Below, piece by piece: positions 10,271 to 22,032 of a stretch of 64,000 bases of DNA. The translations under genes were made by a program, and so were the position numbers. The notes under the pieces are model-generated. The model saw nothing but the letters and a program-made list of their open reading frames with translations, had not been told where the DNA came from and ran no database searches. Origin of the DNA: Coleofasciculus sp. B1-GNL1-01 (GTDB lineage: Bacteria; Cyanobacteriota; Cyanobacteriia; Cyanobacteriales; Coleofasciculaceae); the NCBI GenBank assembly GCA_040220235.1, contig JAVJTO010000053.1, one strand, 5' to 3'. The first letter of the stretch is position 1, and the number at the start of each line of letters is the position of its first letter.

Positions 10271-12214
10271 ATGAACTTTTCCAGTGATATTTTAATTGTG
10301 GGCGGTGGCGTGATTGGTTTGGCACTCGCCCTAGAGTTGAAGTGGCGGGGGGCGACAGTCACGGTATTAACCCGCGACTTTAAACAAGCAGCGACTCTAG
10401 CTGCCGCTGGGATGTTAGCCCCTCATGCGGAAGCCATTCCCGACAGTCCGATGCGGGAATTATGTGGGCGATCGCGATCGCTCTATTCCCAATGGTGTAA
10501 CAAACTGGAACAGCTTACGGGTGTGGCAACAGGATATTTGCCCTGTGGGATTCTCGCCCCAGTTTATGAAGAGGGTTCAGCCTCTCACCCGGATCGCGGA
10601 AATTGGTTAGATAAACAGGCGATTCATCTATATCAACCTGGTTTAGGGGCAGATGTGATTGGTGGTTGGTGGTATCCCGAAGATGGTCAAGTCGATAACC
10701 GAGCATTAGCACAAGCCCTGCGATTAGCGGCTCAAGAAATAGGGATTGACCTGCGCGAAGGCGTTACAGTTGAGGCAATTGAGCAGCAAAATCGTCGCGT
10801 TTGTAGTGTCAGAACCTCGATTGGTGAATTTCAAGCTGACCAGTATGTCTTAGCAACGGGGGCTTGGTCAAACGAGTTGCTACCTGTACCCGTGTATCCG
10901 AAAAAGGGTCAGATGCTGTCGGTACAAATACCAGTCAATCCCCATCAGCCCTTACCCCTGCAACGGGTGTTGTATGGACCCGATACCTACTTAGTTCCCC
11001 GTCGGGATGGGCGGTTATTGATTGGTGCAACCAGTGAGGACGTGGGATGGCAATCGGATAATACGCCAGCAGGAATTCACACCTTACTATCACGGGCAAT
11101 ACGGTTATATCCATCCCTACAGGATTGGTCTATTCGGGAATGCTGGTGGGGATTTCGACCCGCCACCCCAGATGAATGTCCGATCCTGGGAGTCAGCCCT
11201 TGTGAAAATCTAACCCTAGCGACGGGACATTATCGTAACGGTATTCTCCTCGCCCCTGTGACAGCCCAGCTACTGGCAGACTGGATGGAAACGCAAACCG
11301 CTGATCCGCTATTAGACCATTTTCGATACGATCGCTTTTATCATAAATCTTCCTCAAATTTAATGATCAGTTCTCCGATTACGTCCGTATCTCCCCAAAC
11401 CACCTCGGTTACAGAACCAGCGACATCTGATTCGTTAATCATTGCAGGTCGAACATTTCACTCCCGCCTGATGACGGGTACAGGGAAATATAGCACCATT
11501 GAACAAATGCAACAGGGGATTGCGGCGAGTGGGAGTCAGATTGTTACCGTAGCCGTGCGGCGGGTGCAAACCAAAGCCCCGGGTCATGAAGGATTGGCAG
11601 AAGCGCTGGATTGGACAAAAATCTGGATGTTACCCAATACCGCAGGCTGTAAAACCGCAGAAGAAGCGGTGCGGGTGGCGCGGTTAGGTCGGGAAATGGC
11701 AAAGTTATTGGGGCAAGAGGATAATAATTTTGTCAAGTTAGAAGTGATTCCCGACCCGAAATATTTATTACCTGACCCGATTGGCACTCTGGAAGCCGCT
11801 GAGAAACTGGTAAAAGAAGGGTTTGCGGTACTGCCGTATATTAATGCTGACCCCATGTTAGCTAAACGATTAGAAGAGGTGGGGTGTGTCACAGTAATGC
11901 CCTTGGGTTCGCCGATTGGTTCAGGACAGGGGATTAAAACGGCGGCAAATATTCAAATCATTATCGAAGAAGCGGGAATTCCTGTAGTCGTAGATGCGGG
12001 GATTGGATCGCCCAGTGAAGCGGCGCAAGCCATGGAGATGGGGGCAGATGCAATACTTGTGAATAGTGCGATCGCGCTAGCCAAAAATCCGGTGGCGATG
12101 GGGAAAGCGATGGGGATGGCGACTGAAGCGGGGCGTTTGGCATTTCTGGCGGGACGGATTCCGATTAAAAGTTATGCCAGTGCGAGTTCACCGTTGACGG
12201 GGACGATTAGTTAA
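10271..12214 (+). CDS. thiO/thiG: Bifunctional glycine oxidase ThiO / thiazole synthase ThiG
   Basis: N-terminal GGGVIG FAD motif and [14 protein letters not shown]-terminal [40 protein letters not shown]. Confidence 0.95.
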
Positions 12215-14383: not shown

Positions 14384-14923
14384 ATGCTCAAGACCATTGC
14401 CGCCATTTTGCTGCTAGTATTGAGCTTAAGTCTGCATGGCTGCACTGTCGGTGTTAGTGGACTGAAAAGCTATGTCGATACGGCTGACGGTTATGAGTTT
14501 CTCTATCCAAATGGTTGGGTGCCGATTAAAGTCACTGATGGACCCGATGTCGTATTTCGGGATTTGATCGAGCCAACCGAAAATGTCAGCGTGGTGATTA
14601 ACCCCGTTCCAGAGAATACAACCCTCACCGATTTAGGAACGCCTGGGAAAGTCGGTTACCAACTCCAGAAAAATGTGCTTTCGGCGGCGAATTCCAATCG
14701 TCAAGTTGAATTAGTTGATGCCAAAGCTCGCGATACGGGAGACAAAACCTATTATCTTCTTGAATATAGCGTCAAACTTCCCAGTCAAAATCGGCATGAC
14801 CTAGCCACAGCCGTGATCAGTCATGACAAGCTCTATACCTTGAATGCTTCAACCACTGAAGAACGTTGGGATAAAGTGCAAGACTTGTTTACCCAAGTCG
14901 TTAGTTCGTTTAACGTTTACTAG
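14384..14923 (+). CDS. psbP: Photosystem II PsbP (CyanoP) lipoprotein
   Basis: Lipobox LHGC; DGYEFLYPNGW, DVVFRDLIEPTENVSVVI, YYLLEY, LYTLNAST. Confidence 0.92.
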   Translation: MLKTIAAILLLVLSLSLHGCTVGVSGLKSYVDTADGYEFLYPNGWVPIKVTDGPDVVFRDLIEPTENVSVVINPVPENTTLTDLGTPGKVGYQLQKNVLSAANSNRQVELVDAKARDTGDKTYYLLEYSVKLPSQNRHDLATAVISHDKLYTLNASTTEERWDKVQDLFTQVVSSFNVY

Positions 14924-14977
14924 ATGAGGGGGTATTTGTCAAGATTAATGCAACAAATGACAAAGGACATAAGACGA

Positions 14978-15562
14978 ATGACAAAATTCGTTTTAGCCTC
15001 CGCTTCGCCAGCACGCCGCCGTTTATTGCAAAATGCTGGCATTGAACCCATCGTTTGTCAGAGTGATTTTGATGAATCTCAGGTTAAGGTTACTGATCCG
15101 GTAGAGTTGGTCAAGACGTTAGCATTGCAAAAAGCCCAAACCGTTGCGCCTAAATTTAACGATGCGCTAGTGTTAGGCTGTGATTCAGTGTTAAGCATTC
15201 AGGGTGAGATCCACGGTAAACCCGCCAATCCTCAAGAGGCGATCGCTCGGTGGCAAATGATGCGGGGTAAAGTGGGTGAACTCTATACTGGTCATGCCTT
15301 AATTGACTTATCCCAGGACAAAACAATTGTCCGTTGTGGGATAACACGAGTCTACTTTGCCAATGTTAGCGATCGCGCGATTGAAGCGTATGTGGCGACA
15401 GGTGAACCGCTTAAGTGTGCGGGCTGCTTTGCGCTAGAAGGGCGGGGCGGCTTATTTGTCGAAAAACTAGACGGTTGTCATAGTAATGTTATTGGTCTCA
15501 GTTTACCCCTGTTGTATCAGATGCTGAGTGAGCTGGGTTATCAGGTGACAGATTTTTGGTAG
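14978..15562 (+). CDS. maf: Maf-family nucleoside triphosphate pyrophosphatase
   Basis: [31 protein letters not shown]. Confidence 0.93.
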
Positions 15563-15566
15563 TCAA

Positions 15567-15618
15567 GGAACAGGGAACAGGGAACAGGGAACAGGGAACA
15601 GGGAACAGGGAACAGGGA
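15567..15618. repeat. STRR heptamer array (GGGAACA)n
   Basis: About seven direct copies; similar array at 39642-39669. Confidence 0.95.
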
Positions 15619-15704: not shown

Positions 15705-16130
15705 ATGACAACCAGCGAAGAATTCAAACAGAAACTAAGGTCAGGAAACATTGGCGATGCCTTTACCCTAGCCTTGTCTGAATCGGTTGAGTTGGAAATT
15801 ACGACCTGGGTGGCTTCCGCCAATTCGCCACAAACAGAGAAGCCTGCGGCTAATTCCTGTATGCGTACCCGGATTAATATTGTGGAAGGCTCCATCGATA
15901 ATGAGGTAGGATCTCAATTTATCGGTAATGGTCCCTACACGGAACTACGCCAATTTCATACCCAGCAAGTTCAGGAAGGACGCCAGATTATCCAGAATAA
16001 TCTGGAAAACTTGCAACAACTCTTTACCGTGTTGACTCGTGTGCAATATCAACCCCAACAGTCAACCCAACCGCGACTTCGGGAGAACAATCCGGCGTTG
16101 TCGCCTTCGAGTCAGGATAATTTACCTTAA
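15705..16130 (+). CDS. Hypothetical protein (shared-domain cluster gene 1)
   Basis: 141-aa ORF with GGAG RBS; clear paralogue of the N-terminus of the next gene. Confidence 0.85.
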   Translation: MTTSEEFKQKLRSGNIGDAFTLALSESVELEITTWVASANSPQTEKPAANSCMRTRINIVEGSIDNEVGSQFIGNGPYTELRQFHTQQVQEGRQIIQNNLENLQQLFTVLTRVQYQPQQSTQPRLRENNPALSPSSQDNLP

Positions 16131-16257
16131 TCTTGAATATAAAGGATGCCCTGTCGGGCAGTTGTTGGCGTAAGGGGAAAGATTTCTTCCCCATGCATAA
16201 ATGACAGGGGCTTCCATATTTCCCCTTACCAACCCTAATTTTTTCGGTGAGTGTATT

Positions 16258-17745
16258 ATGGCGTCGAGTGAGGACTTTAGGCAACAACTTAAAGCAGGCA
16301 AGGTTCAAGAAGCGTTTGCTGGGGCTTTAGCGGAAGCCATTCAGTTGAAAATTACAACCTGGGTGGCGTCTGATGCTGAGGAACACGCCGAAACAGCCGC
16401 CCAACCCGGTTATCGCCTGCGGACTCAAATTAATACGATTGAGGGAGCGATCGCGAATGAGATTGGGGATCAGTTTATTGGCAATGGTCCCTATCGAGAT
16501 CTCCTCCCCTTTCATTTAGACCAGGTGGCGCAAGGCAATCAGCTTGTTGAGAATAATCTTAAAAGTTTGCAAAAGCTATTTGAGATTTTAATCGCGCTGC
16601 AAGATCAAAAGACAGGGTTGAGTGAGATAGAATACCCGCCCTTATCCATTCCCCCGCCAGAGACAGCCACCCCACCGGATGCGGGAGTAGCCGCCGCCGA
16701 ATTGACCGCCCAAACGCCAGATTTGACGACTCCGGATATTCAGGAACAGGTATCTCCTGAATCGACTCCCTCGCCAGAGACAACAACAGCTTGGGAGGAA
16801 CAAGAGGAAGACGAGGAAGAAGATGAGGATGACTCGGTGCTAGATTTGCTTGAGTCATTACCCCCTCCTCCACCCCCACCGCTAGAGGATGAAGAGTCCT
16901 CAATCACTGAGGAGGATGCGAGAGATGAATTCATTGAAGCCGAACCAGAACCGCTATCGGATCGCCGCGAAGCGGAGTTAGATGAGGAAGACTGGCAAGT
17001 TCTCAACGAAGATTGGGGAACATTGGAACTTGAGGAATTGAAGTCGCCCCCCTCGGCTGAACCGGATATCCCACCCCAAACCGACATTGAACCCACACCG
17101 AGGGAACCGGAATCAGCTAAAAAAATGCCCAGTTTGGACTCCTTAGCAGAACTCCAAGATACTGACGACGATACCGACTGGGATGACTGGGTAGTCGATG
17201 AACCAGAATTAGGCGATCGCTCTTTTGCCCAGATGGAGACGGATGAAGACTGGGGTGACTTAGTAGAAGACTTTGACCCCTTTGCTGCACCTCCACCTGT
17301 TGAGGAGTCTCCCCCGGAGTTAAATATTCAGGAAGACTGGGATGAATTTGCCGTTGAGGAACTTGAACCCTATTCTGATTTAACTGAGGTTGATAGTGAG
17401 ATTGAATGGTCAGACTTGAGTGAAAGCCAAACCACTGAGTCTACCAGTGATCCTCTGGAAGGGTTAGGTGCTTTACCAGAAGAGGCTGAGGAAAAAGAAC
17501 TGACGTCAGAATCATCTGATCCCATGGATTTGTTGGGGGATCAAAACCAATCTGCCGAAAATGTGAATGAGCCGGATTATGAATTCGAGGAACTCTCCTT
17601 GGACGAATTTTCCATGGACGATTTTGATCCCCTAAGCCATCCAGAGGAGGAGAATTGGGAGGAGAAATCCAAATCAACGCAGCAAGGAGAACCACCACCA
17701 CCTCCACCCCCTAGCTCCTTTCAGGATAAAAAACATGAACCCTAG
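16258..17745 (+). CDS. Hypothetical protein: shared N-terminal domain + long acidic, Pro-rich disordered tail (cluster gene 2)
   Basis: Start MASSEDF aligns with MTTSEEF of the upstream paralogue; D/E/P-rich tail. Confidence 0.85.
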   Translation: MASSEDFRQQLKAGKVQEAFAGALAEAIQLKITTWVASDAEEHAETAAQPGYRLRTQINTIEGAIANEIGDQFIGNGPYRDLLPFHLDQVAQGNQLVENNLKSLQKLFEILIALQDQKTGLSEIEYPPLSIPPPETATPPDAGVAAAELTAQTPDLTTPDIQEQVSPESTPSPETTTAWEEQEEDEEEDEDDSVLDLLESLPPPPPPPLEDEESSITEEDARDEFIEAEPEPLSDRREAELDEEDWQVLNEDWGTLELEELKSPPSAEPDIPPQTDIEPTPREPESAKKMPSLDSLAELQDTDDDTDWDDWVVDEPELGDRSFAQMETDEDWGDLVEDFDPFAAPPPVEESPPELNIQEDWDEFAVEELEPYSDLTEVDSEIEWSDLSESQTTESTSDPLEGLGALPEEAEEKELTSESSDPMDLLGDQNQSAENVNEPDYEFEELSLDEFSMDDFDPLSHPEEENWEEKSKSTQQGEPPPPPPPSSFQDKKHEP

Positions 17746-17907
17746 GGGAAGCAATGTAGAGACGTGCCATGGCACGTCTGGGAGCGGGGGGAGAGATTCC
17801 GACGGCGTAGAGCGATACAATTGAATGTTGAGTCACGAAGGTTTCCATTTTGGGGAAATTTCGGTAGATGATTGGATGACTGAACAGGTGTTCTAAAAAG
17901 GTGTGGG

Positions 17908-18711
17908 TTGATGACCAATCGCAATCGACAAGAGCATTCAGATGTACCCGCCTCTAAAACCCGAGGCAATAATTCGGGTGTGAATCGAAACATCAATCAC
18001 TTCTTGCAGTCGTTGGGTGACACACTGATCGACTTCACAGCGCTAGAAGTGAATACGATCGTGGTAGATCATATTAGTGGTCATAAGTTTATTGCCTGGG
18101 AAGCCTACCGGGATATTTATCCGATTTCGCCAGGGTATCTAGAACAACAAGGTATCCACGAATCATTACGCGATCGCTACCTGGAGTTACGTACCAGTCT
18201 AGAACGGGAGTATCGAGGGCTGTTGAATGATCCAACCTCGGAACTTCATGATCCGACGGTGTATGAGCAGGATAACTCCAGTTTCGCCCATGACTTTGAG
18301 CGTACTCCCACTCGTCTCCCCAATCCTCTGGATCTAAAAAGTCCAGAAACAATTGTTGCTATTCAACGCCTGTTAGGGAACTGTCGTTTTTTACGCGGGT
18401 TGCGTAAACTGGCGGAACTCAAAACCGCTTTGGATGATCGGAATCAGACGGTACTACGTTTAGTCTCTCAACAACCCGATCAAGTTGAGATGATTCAACG
18501 GATGATCGCCACGGATACGATTTGCGCTCAAACCGTGATTCAACTCGATGGCGATGTGATCAACCGTTATGATCAATCCCTGTTTCACCATCCCCAGAAA
18601 GAAGTCATTCTGCAAATTCACCGAGAAGGAGTCATCGCCAGTGAACGCCAATGGCGCGGACTGTTGGAGTTTATTATTGGTCTAATCAAAGCTACACTAC
18701 ATAAGTCATAA
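17908..18711 (+). CDS. Hypothetical protein (cluster gene 3)
   Basis: 267-aa ORF; LEVNT and QTVIQLDGDVIN..H motifs. Confidence 0.8.
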   Translation: MMTNRNRQEHSDVPASKTRGNNSGVNRNINHFLQSLGDTLIDFTALEVNTIVVDHISGHKFIAWEAYRDIYPISPGYLEQQGIHESLRDRYLELRTSLEREYRGLLNDPTSELHDPTVYEQDNSSFAHDFERTPTRLPNPLDLKSPETIVAIQRLLGNCRFLRGLRKLAELKTALDDRNQTVLRLVSQQPDQVEMIQRMIATDTICAQTVIQLDGDVINRYDQSLFHHPQKEVILQIHREGVIASERQWRGLLEFIIGLIKATLHKS

Positions 18712-18756
18712 GGTATAGCGCTGCACGCAGGGAAAAGGAAACAGGGTTTGACGTTT

Positions 18757-19506
18757 ATGAATCAGCATCCTCGTTTAGCATCGCCGTCTCACCTGCTTTC
18801 TCCACGTCAGAATTTAGCGATCGCCTCTTGTATCCAAATCGAGGTAGAACGCATTTCTCGCTCTCAGGTTCTGTTTCACGGAATTCGCTTCACGTTAGAT
18901 AAAGAGAGTTTACAACACATTCAACAGGCTCAACAGATGGGGAATTCGCTGAAGCTTTCCCGCCAATTGCTCACAGATTTGCGATATTTCGCTCTCATTG
19001 ATGACGAAAACCGTTGGCAATCGGGACTCAGCTTTTGTACCTACTATCAGCGCGGAAACTCCCAAGAGGCGCTAATGCGAAGTGTGATTGGTATGGATGG
19101 TGATATTATGCATCAAATCCAGCGCAATTGTCTAGAACGTCCCAAGTTTTCCCATCAGATTTCAGCGGCGCATTATTGGTTAATTGAACAAATCATGCAT
19201 CAGTTGCGTTTTGGTTCATTTCTGCCGTTAACTCGGTTAATCAATGGACTAGCTTTGGGATTGGCGTTGCTGATTGCTATGCTGCTAGTTATTCCCTTTA
19301 TCCCAGTTTTCCTGAATAGCCCTTGGATGCTAATCGCTGTTTTAATAATGGTGGGGTTATTTTATATTGGTTTTCGACGCCTATTTTATTTATTGCATCC
19401 CACAGCCCGGCGCTGGATGATGCGGCGAATTATGGCTGGATTTCTCTCCTCAAAACCCCGATCAAAGCGATTAGCTAGGCGACTTTTAAGCGGGTTGTTT
19501 TCCTAG
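18757..19506 (+). CDS. Hypothetical membrane protein (cluster gene 4)
   Basis: RSVIGMDGDIM..H motif, two C-terminal TM helices and a basic tail. Confidence 0.8.
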   Translation: MNQHPRLASPSHLLSPRQNLAIASCIQIEVERISRSQVLFHGIRFTLDKESLQHIQQAQQMGNSLKLSRQLLTDLRYFALIDDENRWQSGLSFCTYYQRGNSQEALMRSVIGMDGDIMHQIQRNCLERPKFSHQISAAHYWLIEQIMHQLRFGSFLPLTRLINGLALGLALLIAMLLVIPFIPVFLNSPWMLIAVLIMVGLFYIGFRRLFYLLHPTARRWMMRRIMAGFLSSKPRSKRLARRLLSGLFS

Positions 19507-19665: not shown

Positions 19666-19722
19666 CAAATGACAAATGACAAATGACAAATGACAAATGA
19701 CAAATGACAAATGGCAAATGAC
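19666..19722. repeat. STRR heptamer array (AAATGAC)n
   Basis: About eight copies; related arrays near 12217, 36370, 43570, 46801, 50970, 55108, 60680. Confidence 0.95.
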
Positions 19723-19723
19723 C

Positions 19724-21790
19724 CTAAAACACATACTCCACTTCCACAATTTCTGTATATTCAAACTCATTCGGACTGGGTTTAACTAAATCATAATAAA
19801 CACCTCCCAGTTCCATGCGATCGCGATCGCACTCTGGTTTCGGTGAATTGTAAACCAGGACATATTCTCGCCCAATATAGGGTTCCATCTCTTGCGCCAC
19901 TTCTCCTCGCCATTGTGTTTTGGTGACTAACACAACTAACTGATTGGCTAACGTGGGCAGGGTTTGGGCAATTTGGCGGCGGTAAATTTCATCTAAACTA
20001 CCAAAGGGTGAATCCATAACAATGGGAAATGTACTGCTATCGGGTCCCATCAGCGCCTGTTCTTGAATCCAATCCCGCACCCGATCAATAATTCCGCCAA
20101 TAAATGAAAGGCTGAGAATTTGGTTCTCTCCCGTAGACGCCGCCACAAGTTCTTCATTTCCAGAGGTTTTTTCCACTAAGATTAATTCATAGTTCTGATT
20201 CAGTTTAGGCAGATAGGGGGTAAACGAAATACCTGTAAAAATCTCCTGAACTCGCCGTTCTAAAGACGTGCGAAACTGATTATCTAGTCGAGTTCTAACT
20301 TCAATCAATCGTTCAATCGCGTCCTGAGTTGCCGCAATCCGCCGCTGTGCCAAAGCCTGCTTTGCCTCATTCATTTGATGCTTGGAGATTTGCTTGACGA
20401 TGGCTTGGATATCTGTCGCCAATCGTTCAATTTGCTGCTGATTTGCGCCCTTTTCTAAAGTTAAATCCCGCAGGGTTGTATCAATTTCATCTAAGCGTTG
20501 TTGCAGTTTACTGATATCCTCATCCGGAAACGTGATCAGCTTCTTCCTAATATCATCCAATTGAGTTTCAATGCGAGAGAGTTCCGCTCGTTCTTGAGAG
20601 AGAATGATCTGTTGCTGATCCACCTCTGCCCAAAAATCGGGGATTTGCCGTTCAATTTCACCAACCTGTACCCCTAAGCGAATCGCGGTTTCTTCCACAT
20701 CAGCTAATCCCGCTTTATCCATCCAAGCGGCAACCTGTTGATAGGCTGGGGTTCCTTCCTGTAATTGAGTGCCACAGATACAATGCTGACTATGCAGTAA
20801 ATCTTGGACAAATTGCTGTTTAATCCCAACCGGAAGTTCGCCACGCGATCGCAAGTCTTCGACAATGGACTGAAACGCTGTGATTACTGGGGATAATAAT
20901 ACAGTATAGCTACGTGTAGACAGGGCGCGTTTAAGGTTATCTTTTGCCTGTTTAAGCTGCTCTCGATGTAATGTTTGTTGGGCTTCCAGTTCATCCCGTA
21001 GCTGTTGCAACTCTTGAGCGCCACCGAGTTCTAATAAGCGACTACTCAAGGTTTGCTTGACTTCATCATGGTGGGCTAATTCCTGTTCAATTTCAACTTG
21101 GCGATTTGCCAGGGTGTGACTTTTTTGTTCCAGTTGCTTTTGCTCTTTGAGTAGTTTTTTGGTTTGCGAATCGCCGATTAACGATAACTCAGCTTCCAAG
21201 GTTTTTCTGGCTTCCTTGAGATGCTTAATTGAGCGATTTAACACCTCAACGCCGAGCAATGTCTTCGTCGCTTCAGCAATGTCGGCTTTCTTATCAGATC
21301 GGGCAATTTTCTCGATGCGTTCTCCATCAAAGAAGAAGTATTGATGTAAGCTTGCAGGTAAGATACGCCCAATGATATCTTCTGGCAATTGTTGCGGTAG
21401 CAGCCAGCGACCATCATCATCGGCAATTTGCAAATATAACTCACTTTTCCCCTGTTCCACACCTGCTTCTGTCTTGTAGGCGCGGCAGAGTCGCTTTGCC
21501 TGATAGCGTTTATTCTGATGCTCAAACCCAATTTCCACCCAACATTCTACCGACTCTTTCCAAGCTGCTTCACTAATTGCCCGTTTATTCACCAATTGTT
21601 CTTGAGACGCGAACGCCGCCGTGAATTTCTCGTACAGTACCCAAGTGAAGCCATTTAATAGCGTCGTCTTTCCAGCACCATTGTTACCATGAATCACCGT
21701 TGTATTGCGATCGCCTGTTGCCAGAGTTATTTCGGGTGTCTTTCCATAAAACTGGCGAAAATTGCACAGCCGGATTGACCTCAGCTTCAT
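19724..21790 (-). CDS. SMC/Rad50-like ABC ATPase (DndD-like)
   Basis: Walker A GNNGAGKT, YFFFDGE, long coiled coils, central CICG hook, ASTGENQ signature, Walker B IVMDSPFGSLD. Confidence 0.9.
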   Translation of the reverse strand: MKLRSIRLCNFRQFYGKTPEITLATGDRNTTVIHGNNGAGKTTLLNGFTWVLYEKFTAAFASQEQLVNKRAISEAAWKESVECWVEIGFEHQNKRYQAKRLCRAYKTEAGVEQGKSELYLQIADDDGRWLLPQQLPEDIIGRILPASLHQYFFFDGERIEKIARSDKKADIAEATKTLLGVEVLNRSIKHLKEARKTLEAELSLIGDSQTKKLLKEQKQLEQKSHTLANRQVEIEQELAHHDEVKQTLSSRLLELGGAQELQQLRDELEAQQTLHREQLKQAKDNLKRALSTRSYTVLLSPVITAFQSIVEDLRSRGELPVGIKQQFVQDLLHSQHCICGTQLQEGTPAYQQVAAWMDKAGLADVEETAIRLGVQVGEIERQIPDFWAEVDQQQIILSQERAELSRIETQLDDIRKKLITFPDEDISKLQQRLDEIDTTLRDLTLEKGANQQQIERLATDIQAIVKQISKHQMNEAKQALAQRRIAATQDAIERLIEVRTRLDNQFRTSLERRVQEIFTGISFTPYLPKLNQNYELILVEKTSGNEELVAASTGENQILSLSFIGGIIDRVRDWIQEQALMGPDSSTFPIVMDSPFGSLDEIYRRQIAQTLPTLANQLVVLVTKTQWRGEVAQEMEPYIGREYVLVYNSPKPECDRDRMELGGVYYDLVKPSPNEFEYTEIVEVEYVF

Positions 21791-22032
21791 TGCACTTCTT
21801 CCTTGACAATTCTCAAGATGTCATCATTGATATGGCGGGGGGTCTTCATATAAAGTTTATCTTTTTCGGCTTGTAACACTCTCTCTATAATCCGACGTAC
21901 CTCTGGCGGCGCACTGGTAATGGGTTCTTGTACGTCCAAGATCGCCGCATTTCGATGATAGGCGGAACGCTTTTCCGATAAGATTCTGGAGATGGCTTGC
22001 GTGGCTATGTCCGGATATTTAAATGTCATCAC
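21787..22032 (-). CDS. Small hypothetical protein translationally coupled to the SMC-like ATPase
   Basis: 81 aa; its stop overlaps the ATPase start (ATGA). Confidence 0.75.
   Translation of the reverse strand: MMTFKYPDIATQAISRILSEKRSAYHRNAAILDVQEPITSAPPEVRRIIERVLQAEKDKLYMKTPRHINDDILRIVKEEVQ

Follow-up and report, generated by a model that had tools for sequence, protein, structure and literature searches.

The YbaB/EbfC proteins are a DNA-binding family (PMC2665219, in the part available to us). YbaB and the chloroplast protein STIC2 share the topology alpha1/beta1/beta2/beta3/alpha'/alpha2, and YbaB is a tight dimer; STIC2, a YbaB homologue, binds the tails of the insertases Alb3 and Alb4 (available text of PMC11480477 for both statements). 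EspL, a YbaB-domain protein of the mycobacterial ESX-1 system, stabilises its partners in a chaperone-like manner (PMC6319747, accessible portion). In these partial accounts of STIC2 and EspL the YbaB-like fold is a protein-binding adaptor or chaperone near membranes. Here a cluster of four hypothetical genes is described, found in a stretch of 64,000 nucleotides of Coleofasciculus sp. B1-GNL1-01 (contig JAVJTO010000053.1; the whole stretch is called the window). Their products carry remote copies of one domain, whose nearest fold, by weak resemblance, is YbaB/EbfC, and may be subunits of a membrane-tethered assembly. Small alpha-beta-beta-beta-alpha domains are also known from SRP9/14 and COMMD proteins, whose paralogues form mixed dimers or rings.

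The locus differs from YbaB/EbfC in having three to four specialised paralogues per operon, a predicted membrane anchor, a helical insert, an acidic tail and invariant Thr and His residues. YbaB is near-universal (61 of 61 genomes), in contrast to the patchy module described below, and the Coleofasciculus genome encodes a separate canonical YbaB elsewhere. STIC2 and EspL are single proteins whose partners are an insertase and a secretion machine, respectively, and neither kind of machine is a recurring neighbour of the module. A 2003 paper of Lim et al. is said, by its title, to link YbaB/EbfC to recR. Linkage to recR was not found here, the recurring neighbours being psbP and maf, with none recurring at distant loci.

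Common ancestry of the four genes

Four co-oriented open reading frames (ORFs) are present where a sequence-only reading of this DNA had placed them. They lie on the plus strand, flanked by the psbP-maf pair and by a convergent DndD-like ATPase gene.

15705..16130, plus strand: gene 1, type A; bare domain, 141 amino acids (aa), predicted helix-helix-strand-strand-strand-long helix
15864..15959, plus strand: shared motif of gene 1 (R54-H85)
16258..17745, plus strand: gene 2, type A paralogue; domain followed by a 375-aa acidic, proline-rich tail with recurring DEDWGD-like words
16420..16515, plus strand: shared motif of gene 2 (R55-H86)
17911..18711, plus strand: gene 3, type B; domain split by a helical insert of about 145 aa
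about 18076-18510, plus strand: helical insert of gene 3, between strands 1 and 2 of the domain
18529..18621, plus strand: shared motif of gene 3 (Q207-H237)
18757..19506, plus strand: gene 4, type C; domain, then a predicted two-helix membrane hairpin, then a basic C-terminal tail
19078..19173, plus strand: shared motif of gene 4 (R108-H139)
about 19234-19377, plus strand: predicted membrane hairpin of gene 4, two helices

Gene 2 most likely starts at 16258 rather than at 16201, because family alignments begin there and related strains replace the segment 16146-16245. Alternative TTG starts are found at 17908 (gene 3) and 18748 (gene 4). Named Coleofasciculus records contain proteins 97-100% identical to gene 3.

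The sequence-only reading had defined a motif, (R/Q)(T/S)xI followed after two or three residues by (D/E)Gx(I/V) and then by a His 23 or 24 residues after the Gly. The motif is found as written in all four genes (Gly62-His85, Gly63-His86 and Gly214-His237, all at 23 residues; Gly115-His139, at 24). Among 9,955 stop-to-stop frames of at least 100 aa in the genome, the pattern occurs in four, which are these genes. It was fitted post hoc, and independent tests therefore weigh more. In broad alignments the exact expression matches 2 of 70 type A rows, 3 of 55 type C rows and 5 of 65 type B rows, and is no family signature. The upstream strand ascribed to genes 1-3 is present in them, yet is not restricted to them: gene 4 has SGLSFCT, which aligns with the GG-x-I-x-T strand of type C proteins.

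Pairwise BLAST links only genes 1 and 2 (49% identity over 117 aa), so that paralogy had to be sought with profiles. In each of the three pairings, profiles of the cyanobacterial families align with the motif in register, though weakly (P 0.003, 0.0004 and 3e-5). Once its insert is removed, gene 3 aligns with the gene 1/2 family over 80 columns, first strand included, and a hidden Markov model (HMM) made from gene 1/2 sequences alone finds gene 3 homologues at E 2e-7 (2,302 ORFs). Broad profiles, with distant members added, match as follows: A with B lacking the insert, 97.5% over 93 columns; B core with C, 97.2% over 59 columns; A with C, 90.2% over 50 columns; C with the gene 4 family, 97.8% over 127 columns; B with gene 3, 99.3%. 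The direct match of A with the gene 4 profile is weak (49.5%), and gene 4 is therefore joined through C and B. The divergent paralogy proposed earlier is thus borne out by HMM-HMM comparison, with probabilities of 90-99% for the broad profiles and gene 4 joined through C: profile comparison shows the four genes to be remote paralogues of one domain of about 100 residues. The proposed specialisation of the members also held up (bare domain, acidic tail, large insert, two predicted transmembrane helices).

In a quick, provisional tree of the core domain (only 55 columns) type A stands apart from B plus C with support 99. Relatives of gene 4 group with C (90), and relatives of gene 3 with most B proteins (88). 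From this grouping types A, B and C are older than the cyanobacterial copies.

Distribution and gene order in cyanobacteria

In a sample of 201 genomes of the phylum, in which genes 3 and 4 were searched with single-protein queries, type A was found in 24 genomes, gene 3 (B) in 20 and gene 4 (C) in 19, the genome sets being nested. One family carries the module in 7 of 24 genomes, neighbouring families in 0 of 8 and 0 of 10. Named carriers include Spirulina, Moorena, Symploca, Prochloron and Phormidium, to which Picosynechococcus, Nostoc, Anabaena, Cylindrospermopsis, Cyanobacterium, Desertifilum and Geitlerinema are added.

Gene order was compared at 99 loci. The sample above supplied 20 of them, and the best 80 of 248 GTDB matches supplied the other 79; a few loci are counted twice, and contig ends truncate many. 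Order and strand are invariant. The linkage that had been expected is conserved across cyanobacteria, 65 of the 99 loci having the full g1-g2-g3-g4 set; others have g1-g3-g4 (9), g2-g3-g4 (9), g1-g2-g3 (5), or one or two genes (11). A maf gene is a neighbour at 54 loci and psbP at 41. Source names of family members are 'hypothetical' or empty, except for one fragment and the SdrI label discussed below. A search for shorter B forms, of 30-99 aa, gave fragments only. The corresponding pair in the window is context outside the system:

14384..15562, plus strand: psbP and maf, usually found upstream of the cyanobacterial loci

The A-B-C core beyond cyanobacteria

A weak tblastn match (E 3) led to three consecutive hypothetical genes on a chromid of Azospirillum brasilense. 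The first encodes an A protein, scored at 56 bits by the gene 1/2 HMM, and the second a B protein; the product of the third is small, contains the motif strands and is hydrophobic towards its C terminus. In strain Sp7 the module corresponds to AMK58_RS24010-24020. Distant loci were collected as the best 80 of 164 metagenome matches to Azospirillum B homologues, some being near-duplicates. An A gene lies upstream of B in 63 of the 64 loci with room for it. A C gene lies downstream of B in 60 of 62, a count partly circular because the C HMM was seeded from distant loci; one C HMM match, at locus L291, is a second B gene, two tandem B genes being found there at the contig end. Of 81 distant loci, 58 have a complete A-B-C trio; their guanine plus cytosine content is 35-75%. 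The C HMM, built without the family of the window, finds 76 of 87 gene 4 homologues.

Natural B-C fusions in one frame follow A and a separate B gene at two loci (L278:2402-3655, 418 aa; L300:3809-5035, 409 aa). The core thus comprises three genes, A (bare domain), B (with insert) and C (two predicted transmembrane helices), and is far more widespread than cyanobacteria. No long C-terminal tail was found in distant A genes, and gene 2 therefore seems to have arisen by duplication in cyanobacteria and to have gained an arm. No further gene recurs beside the trio at distant loci. Of 125 neighbours called, 93 were scanned in Pfam, and most of these serve metabolism or transport.

Some A-type frames have 100-215 extra upstream residues (L265:951-1934, L274:144-806, L300:2188-2958), either start-calling artefacts or N-terminal extensions. 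At L287:4585-6694, a single metagenome locus, the module is divergent from a contractile-injection tube gene.

Predicted structures and a weak resemblance to YbaB

The AlphaFold2 model of gene 1 (predicted local distance difference test, pLDDT, 85.6) has helices 3-12 and 16-27, strands 29-35, 52-58 and 63-68, and a long helix 79-115; at the short alpha' no helix of at least four residues is assigned. That of gene 3 (pLDDT 82.0) has helix 21-41, strand 44-50, the helical insert, strands 204-211 and 216-220, and helices 222-226 and 230-265. In these models genes 1 and 3 have one fold, helix/three-strand/short-helix/long-helix, rebuilt around the insert in gene 3. As anticipated, the topology is equal, and both models align to the same solved chains.

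The predicted folds resemble YbaB/EbfC in topology and size. YbaB/EbfC chains (PF02575; PDB 1pug, 1j8b, 3f42, 1ybx and 5yrx, the last three of which we take to be family members) are the best whole-domain structural matches of both models. The best superpositions have Z 5.9, root-mean-square deviation (rmsd) 3.3 and 80 aligned residues for gene 1, and Z 6.5, rmsd 5.4 and 85 aligned residues for gene 3. In VIA-align searches with gene 1, YbaB chains rank 2, 5, 6 and 11 in a first search headed by a helical GRIP domain, and 1, 2, 4, 5 and 8 of 413 in a second look. With gene 3 they rank 1, 5 and 7 of 48,161, aligned across the insert. Foldseek gave no match at E 0.001 against the PDB (genes 1 and 3) or viral models (gene 3), YbaB rows appearing at E above 1. 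PF02575 matched none of the four proteins nor of 208 family members, the distant C types not being scanned as a set. The nearest fold is thus weakly assigned to YbaB/EbfC, as a resemblance of models without sequence homology. SRP9/14 and COMMD, both eukaryotic, appear among weak Foldseek rows; SRP chains reach only Z 2.3-2.4, and COMMD is absent among the 50 matches listed in the structural comparison. Contacts predicted by direct-coupling analysis of 357 A-type sequences (effective number, Meff, 233) were not usable, the top z being 4.6.

In gene 4 an unbroken hydrophobic stretch at about 155-215 leaves room for a two-helix hairpin, followed by a tail of 42 aa with net charge +11. The predicted hairpin would put domain and basic tail on a common cytoplasmic side.

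Family searches

The absence of any named family, as earlier supposed, was confirmed in Pfam, NCBIfam, PHROG, PADLOC and PDB sequences. The ESM Atlas had no usable match for genes 1 and 3. Searches of PDB sequences with six profiles gave nothing significant, and PADLOC (2023 library), run on the window proteins, gave only a JetC coiled-coil match at E 0.012. GerW/YtfJ (PF09579) had no Pfam match, and hhalign gave less than 1% against one YtfJ sequence only. The literature outside subscription papers yielded nothing on the PCC 7002 tags, the Azospirillum tags or accessions, the motifs or YbaB-like operons. The protein family and the gene system are rated as new; the function may prove to be of a known kind, for example defence.

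Several assignments were rejected. A match of the broad A profile to the N-terminal part of anthrax lethal factor (E 0.013) is attributed to chance, because the protein is absent from the listed fold-search rows. A role as accessory of extracellular contractile injection systems does not fit, as the tube protein (PF06841) is encoded in 9 of 24 module genomes, and the module is missing from 19 of the 28 genomes that encode the tube. An operon of gas vesicle GvpA paralogues was discarded, since the Pfam and NCBIfam scans gave no Gvp family. Nor was the module found within defence islands or mobile elements, whether at cyanobacterial loci, among distant neighbours or in viral contigs.

Conserved residues and the acidic tail

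In type A only Thr34 and His85 (gene 1 numbering) are invariant. In type C the GG, Q-x-D-G-D and His positions are conserved at 75-95%, the His at 85%, being missing in some proteins. So few invariant A residues, together with C proteins devoid of the His, argue against an enzyme. Type B is the most conserved. In 65 distant B proteins R95, K125, W127, Q137, G144, D145 and R149 are invariant, R124-K125 and R149 being conserved at 97-100%; in 106 cyanobacterial ones R165, K166, R219, H237 and W248 are found at 95-100% (R165, K166 and R219 at 95-99%). The domains are net acidic (-4, -6 and -5). In alignments of distant A proteins the loop between strands 1 and 2 is extended, with alternating hydrophobic residues.

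The gene 2 tail has a net charge of -110 and 33% D/E. Its 83 homologues range from 242 to 2,075 aa, with a median of 30% D/E and 3% K/R in the tails, and the words DEDW, EDWG and DWGD are found in 46-50 of them (DEDW in 50). In the 2,075-aa homologue (L034:7934-14161) the acidic tail is made of long, near-perfect tandem repeats with Trp-containing units. PopZ and HubP/FimV are polar landmark proteins in which, as in gene 2, a folded assembly or anchoring domain is joined to a long acidic, Pro-rich disordered arm. No homology to them was found in Pfam scans, and the arm of the module is optional and found in cyanobacterial loci only.

Expression in Synechococcus PCC 7002

The homologues of Synechococcus PCC 7002 are A1306 and A1307, identified by name, and A1305, presumed from position. 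In the available part of PMC3468840 the transcript shares of A1305-A1307 in standard growth are 1.9e-4, 9.8e-5 and 8.2e-5, to be compared with 9.0e-5 for psbP and 1.0e-4 for maf. In the same data no ratio above 1.5 is found in seven conditions, and heat shock lowers the three genes along with their neighbours. The NCBI label of A1305, 'surface protein SdrI, putative', is not accepted, being likely a low-complexity match. For Coleofasciculus, coverage in three metatranscriptome runs is as even over the flanks as over the genes, and a fourth run has shallow patches only. Such even coverage looks like library DNA, and the reads therefore do not show transcription in this organism.

A proposed membrane-tethered scaffold and its alternatives

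Common ancestry, three ancient subunit types, a fixed order and natural B-C fusions are established by the comparisons above. We lean, by a little more than even judgement, to a membrane-tethered hetero-oligomeric scaffold of YbaB-like paralogues. A hetero-oligomer is favoured indirectly, by the fixed order across distant bacteria, the B-C fusions and the dimer-forming nearest fold. The predicted helical hairpin of gene 4 would tether the scaffold to the cytoplasmic face of the membrane. The domains would pair through sheets and long helices as in YbaB, in mixed A-B and B-C pairs, and the shared Thr, Gly and His positions would be structural and not catalytic. B could be the working end, a putative patch of its specific conserved basic residues (R165-K166, R219 and K59 in gene 3) binding an anionic partner; a lipid head group, a nucleotide, nucleic acid or an acidic peptide are candidates. 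The acidic tail of gene 2, a putative cyanobacterial add-on, would serve as a disordered arm for docking, with clients recruited by its Trp-containing repeats. By analogy with polar landmark proteins, the complex might so mark a membrane site.

Several observations weigh against this scaffold. The stoichiometry of subunit types is loose across genomes and loci: 18 of 99 loci (some at contig ends) lack gene 1 or gene 2, A-type genes occur without B or C in 4 of 24 genomes, and C was not found in the five g1-g2-g3 loci. The structural scores with YbaB (Z 4.4-6.5, rmsd 3.3-7.2 A) are under the tool's trust level of 8, and hhalign against 27 YbaB sequences stays below 1%, with no profile similarity. 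In the part of PMC5062996 available, the PCC 7002 co-expression network splits the three genes into modules 0, 3 and 0. No conserved neighbour indicates a pathway. Binding and location are what we infer.

Other functions can be set against the same data. A membrane-acting defence or stress effector, in which A and B keep C inactive until phage infection or damage releases it to oligomerise and disrupt the membrane, would agree with the self-contained operon, the patchy spread, the small component with two transmembrane helices and, outside cyanobacteria, the variable context; among single neighbours are a ThsB-TIR gene, an integrase and a PD-(D/E)XK gene, and EspL offers a chaperone precedent (PMC6319747, accessible portion). 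We hold it improbable, as defence- or mobility-like neighbours occur in only 3 of 93 scanned, PADLOC and PHROG have no match, and in many cyanobacterial families the module sits at a fixed chromosomal site by psbP-maf. Furthermore, no relative was found in viral contigs, plasmid matches are limited to chromid-size replicons of Azospirillum, and no induction above 1.5-fold is seen in the seven conditions, phage not among them, of the data available in PMC3468840. An extended polymer, ring or shell, with A as filament, B as cap and C as nucleation point at the membrane, and no finite scaffold, is quite improbable. The modelled three-stranded sheet is open-edged and accompanied by long amphipathic helices, the extended loop of distant A proteins would suit a polymer, and A is first in an operon along which the PCC 7002 transcript level declines; yet these levels are modest, near those of psbP and maf (available part of PMC3468840 for both), and several lineages keep only a long-tailed A.

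A membrane-tethered nucleoid anchor, YbaB/EbfC-like tweezers binding DNA with C tying the chromosome to the membrane, ranks as highly improbable. The nearest fold belongs to a DNA-binding family (PMC2665219, as available), B has conserved basic residues, and the Azospirillum genes follow parA-parB on the same strand. That adjacency does not recur at the other loci examined, the domains and the gene 2 tail carry the negative charges given above, the genome has its own canonical YbaB, and no sequence homology to the YbaB family was found. Most remote is a STIC2-like adaptor of membrane-protein biogenesis, to which the shared STIC2 topology (PMC11480477, available text), the psbP adjacency in cyanobacteria and the predicted membrane anchor would point. 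In the phylum sample 177 of 201 genomes, most photosynthetic families included, yielded no copy of the module; it is present in the non-photosynthetic Azospirillum, and its linkage to psbP may be positional inertia.

The scaffold reading may be tentatively carried further, to an undescribed cross-phylum membrane machine in which C nucleates, B reads an anionic signal and A extends a ring or lattice. The cyanobacterial arm, of up to 2,000 residues, might turn it into a condensate-forming landmark at the plasma or thylakoid membrane. The module keeps its order in filamentous cyanobacteria, in Azospirillum and in dozens of bacteria of soil, sediment and water, yet has no match in the family libraries searched, which makes it a candidate overlooked membrane machine and suggests a use of the YbaB-like fold in mixed assemblies tethered to a membrane. 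The module is present in the genetic models Synechococcus PCC 7002 and Azospirillum brasilense Sp7.

Other features of the loci

In Azospirillum the pair preceding A-B-C encodes a helix-turn-helix ParA and a ParB (L236:2805-4677, L318:933-2805). In the window, the gene converging on the cluster (19724-22032, minus strand) encodes an SMC-type DndD-like ATPase (TIGR03185, 168 bits, under the cut-off of 246) and is a non-conserved neighbour of the module; an upstream 81-aa ORF overlapping it has no Pfam or NCBIfam match. Promoter and terminator scans remained at chance level (7 versus 6.4 and 4 versus 4.2). A 647-aa ORF at 10271-12214 (plus strand) is, as we presume from its translation, similar to a fusion of ThiO (glycine oxidase) and ThiG (thiazole synthase). 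Between genes 2 and 3 lies a 50-bp element (17745-17794) with about 166 genome-wide matches of at least 30 bp. Heptamers are repeated in tandem on both sides of the cluster, six GGGAACA units at 15573-15614 and six TGACAAA units at 19670-19711.

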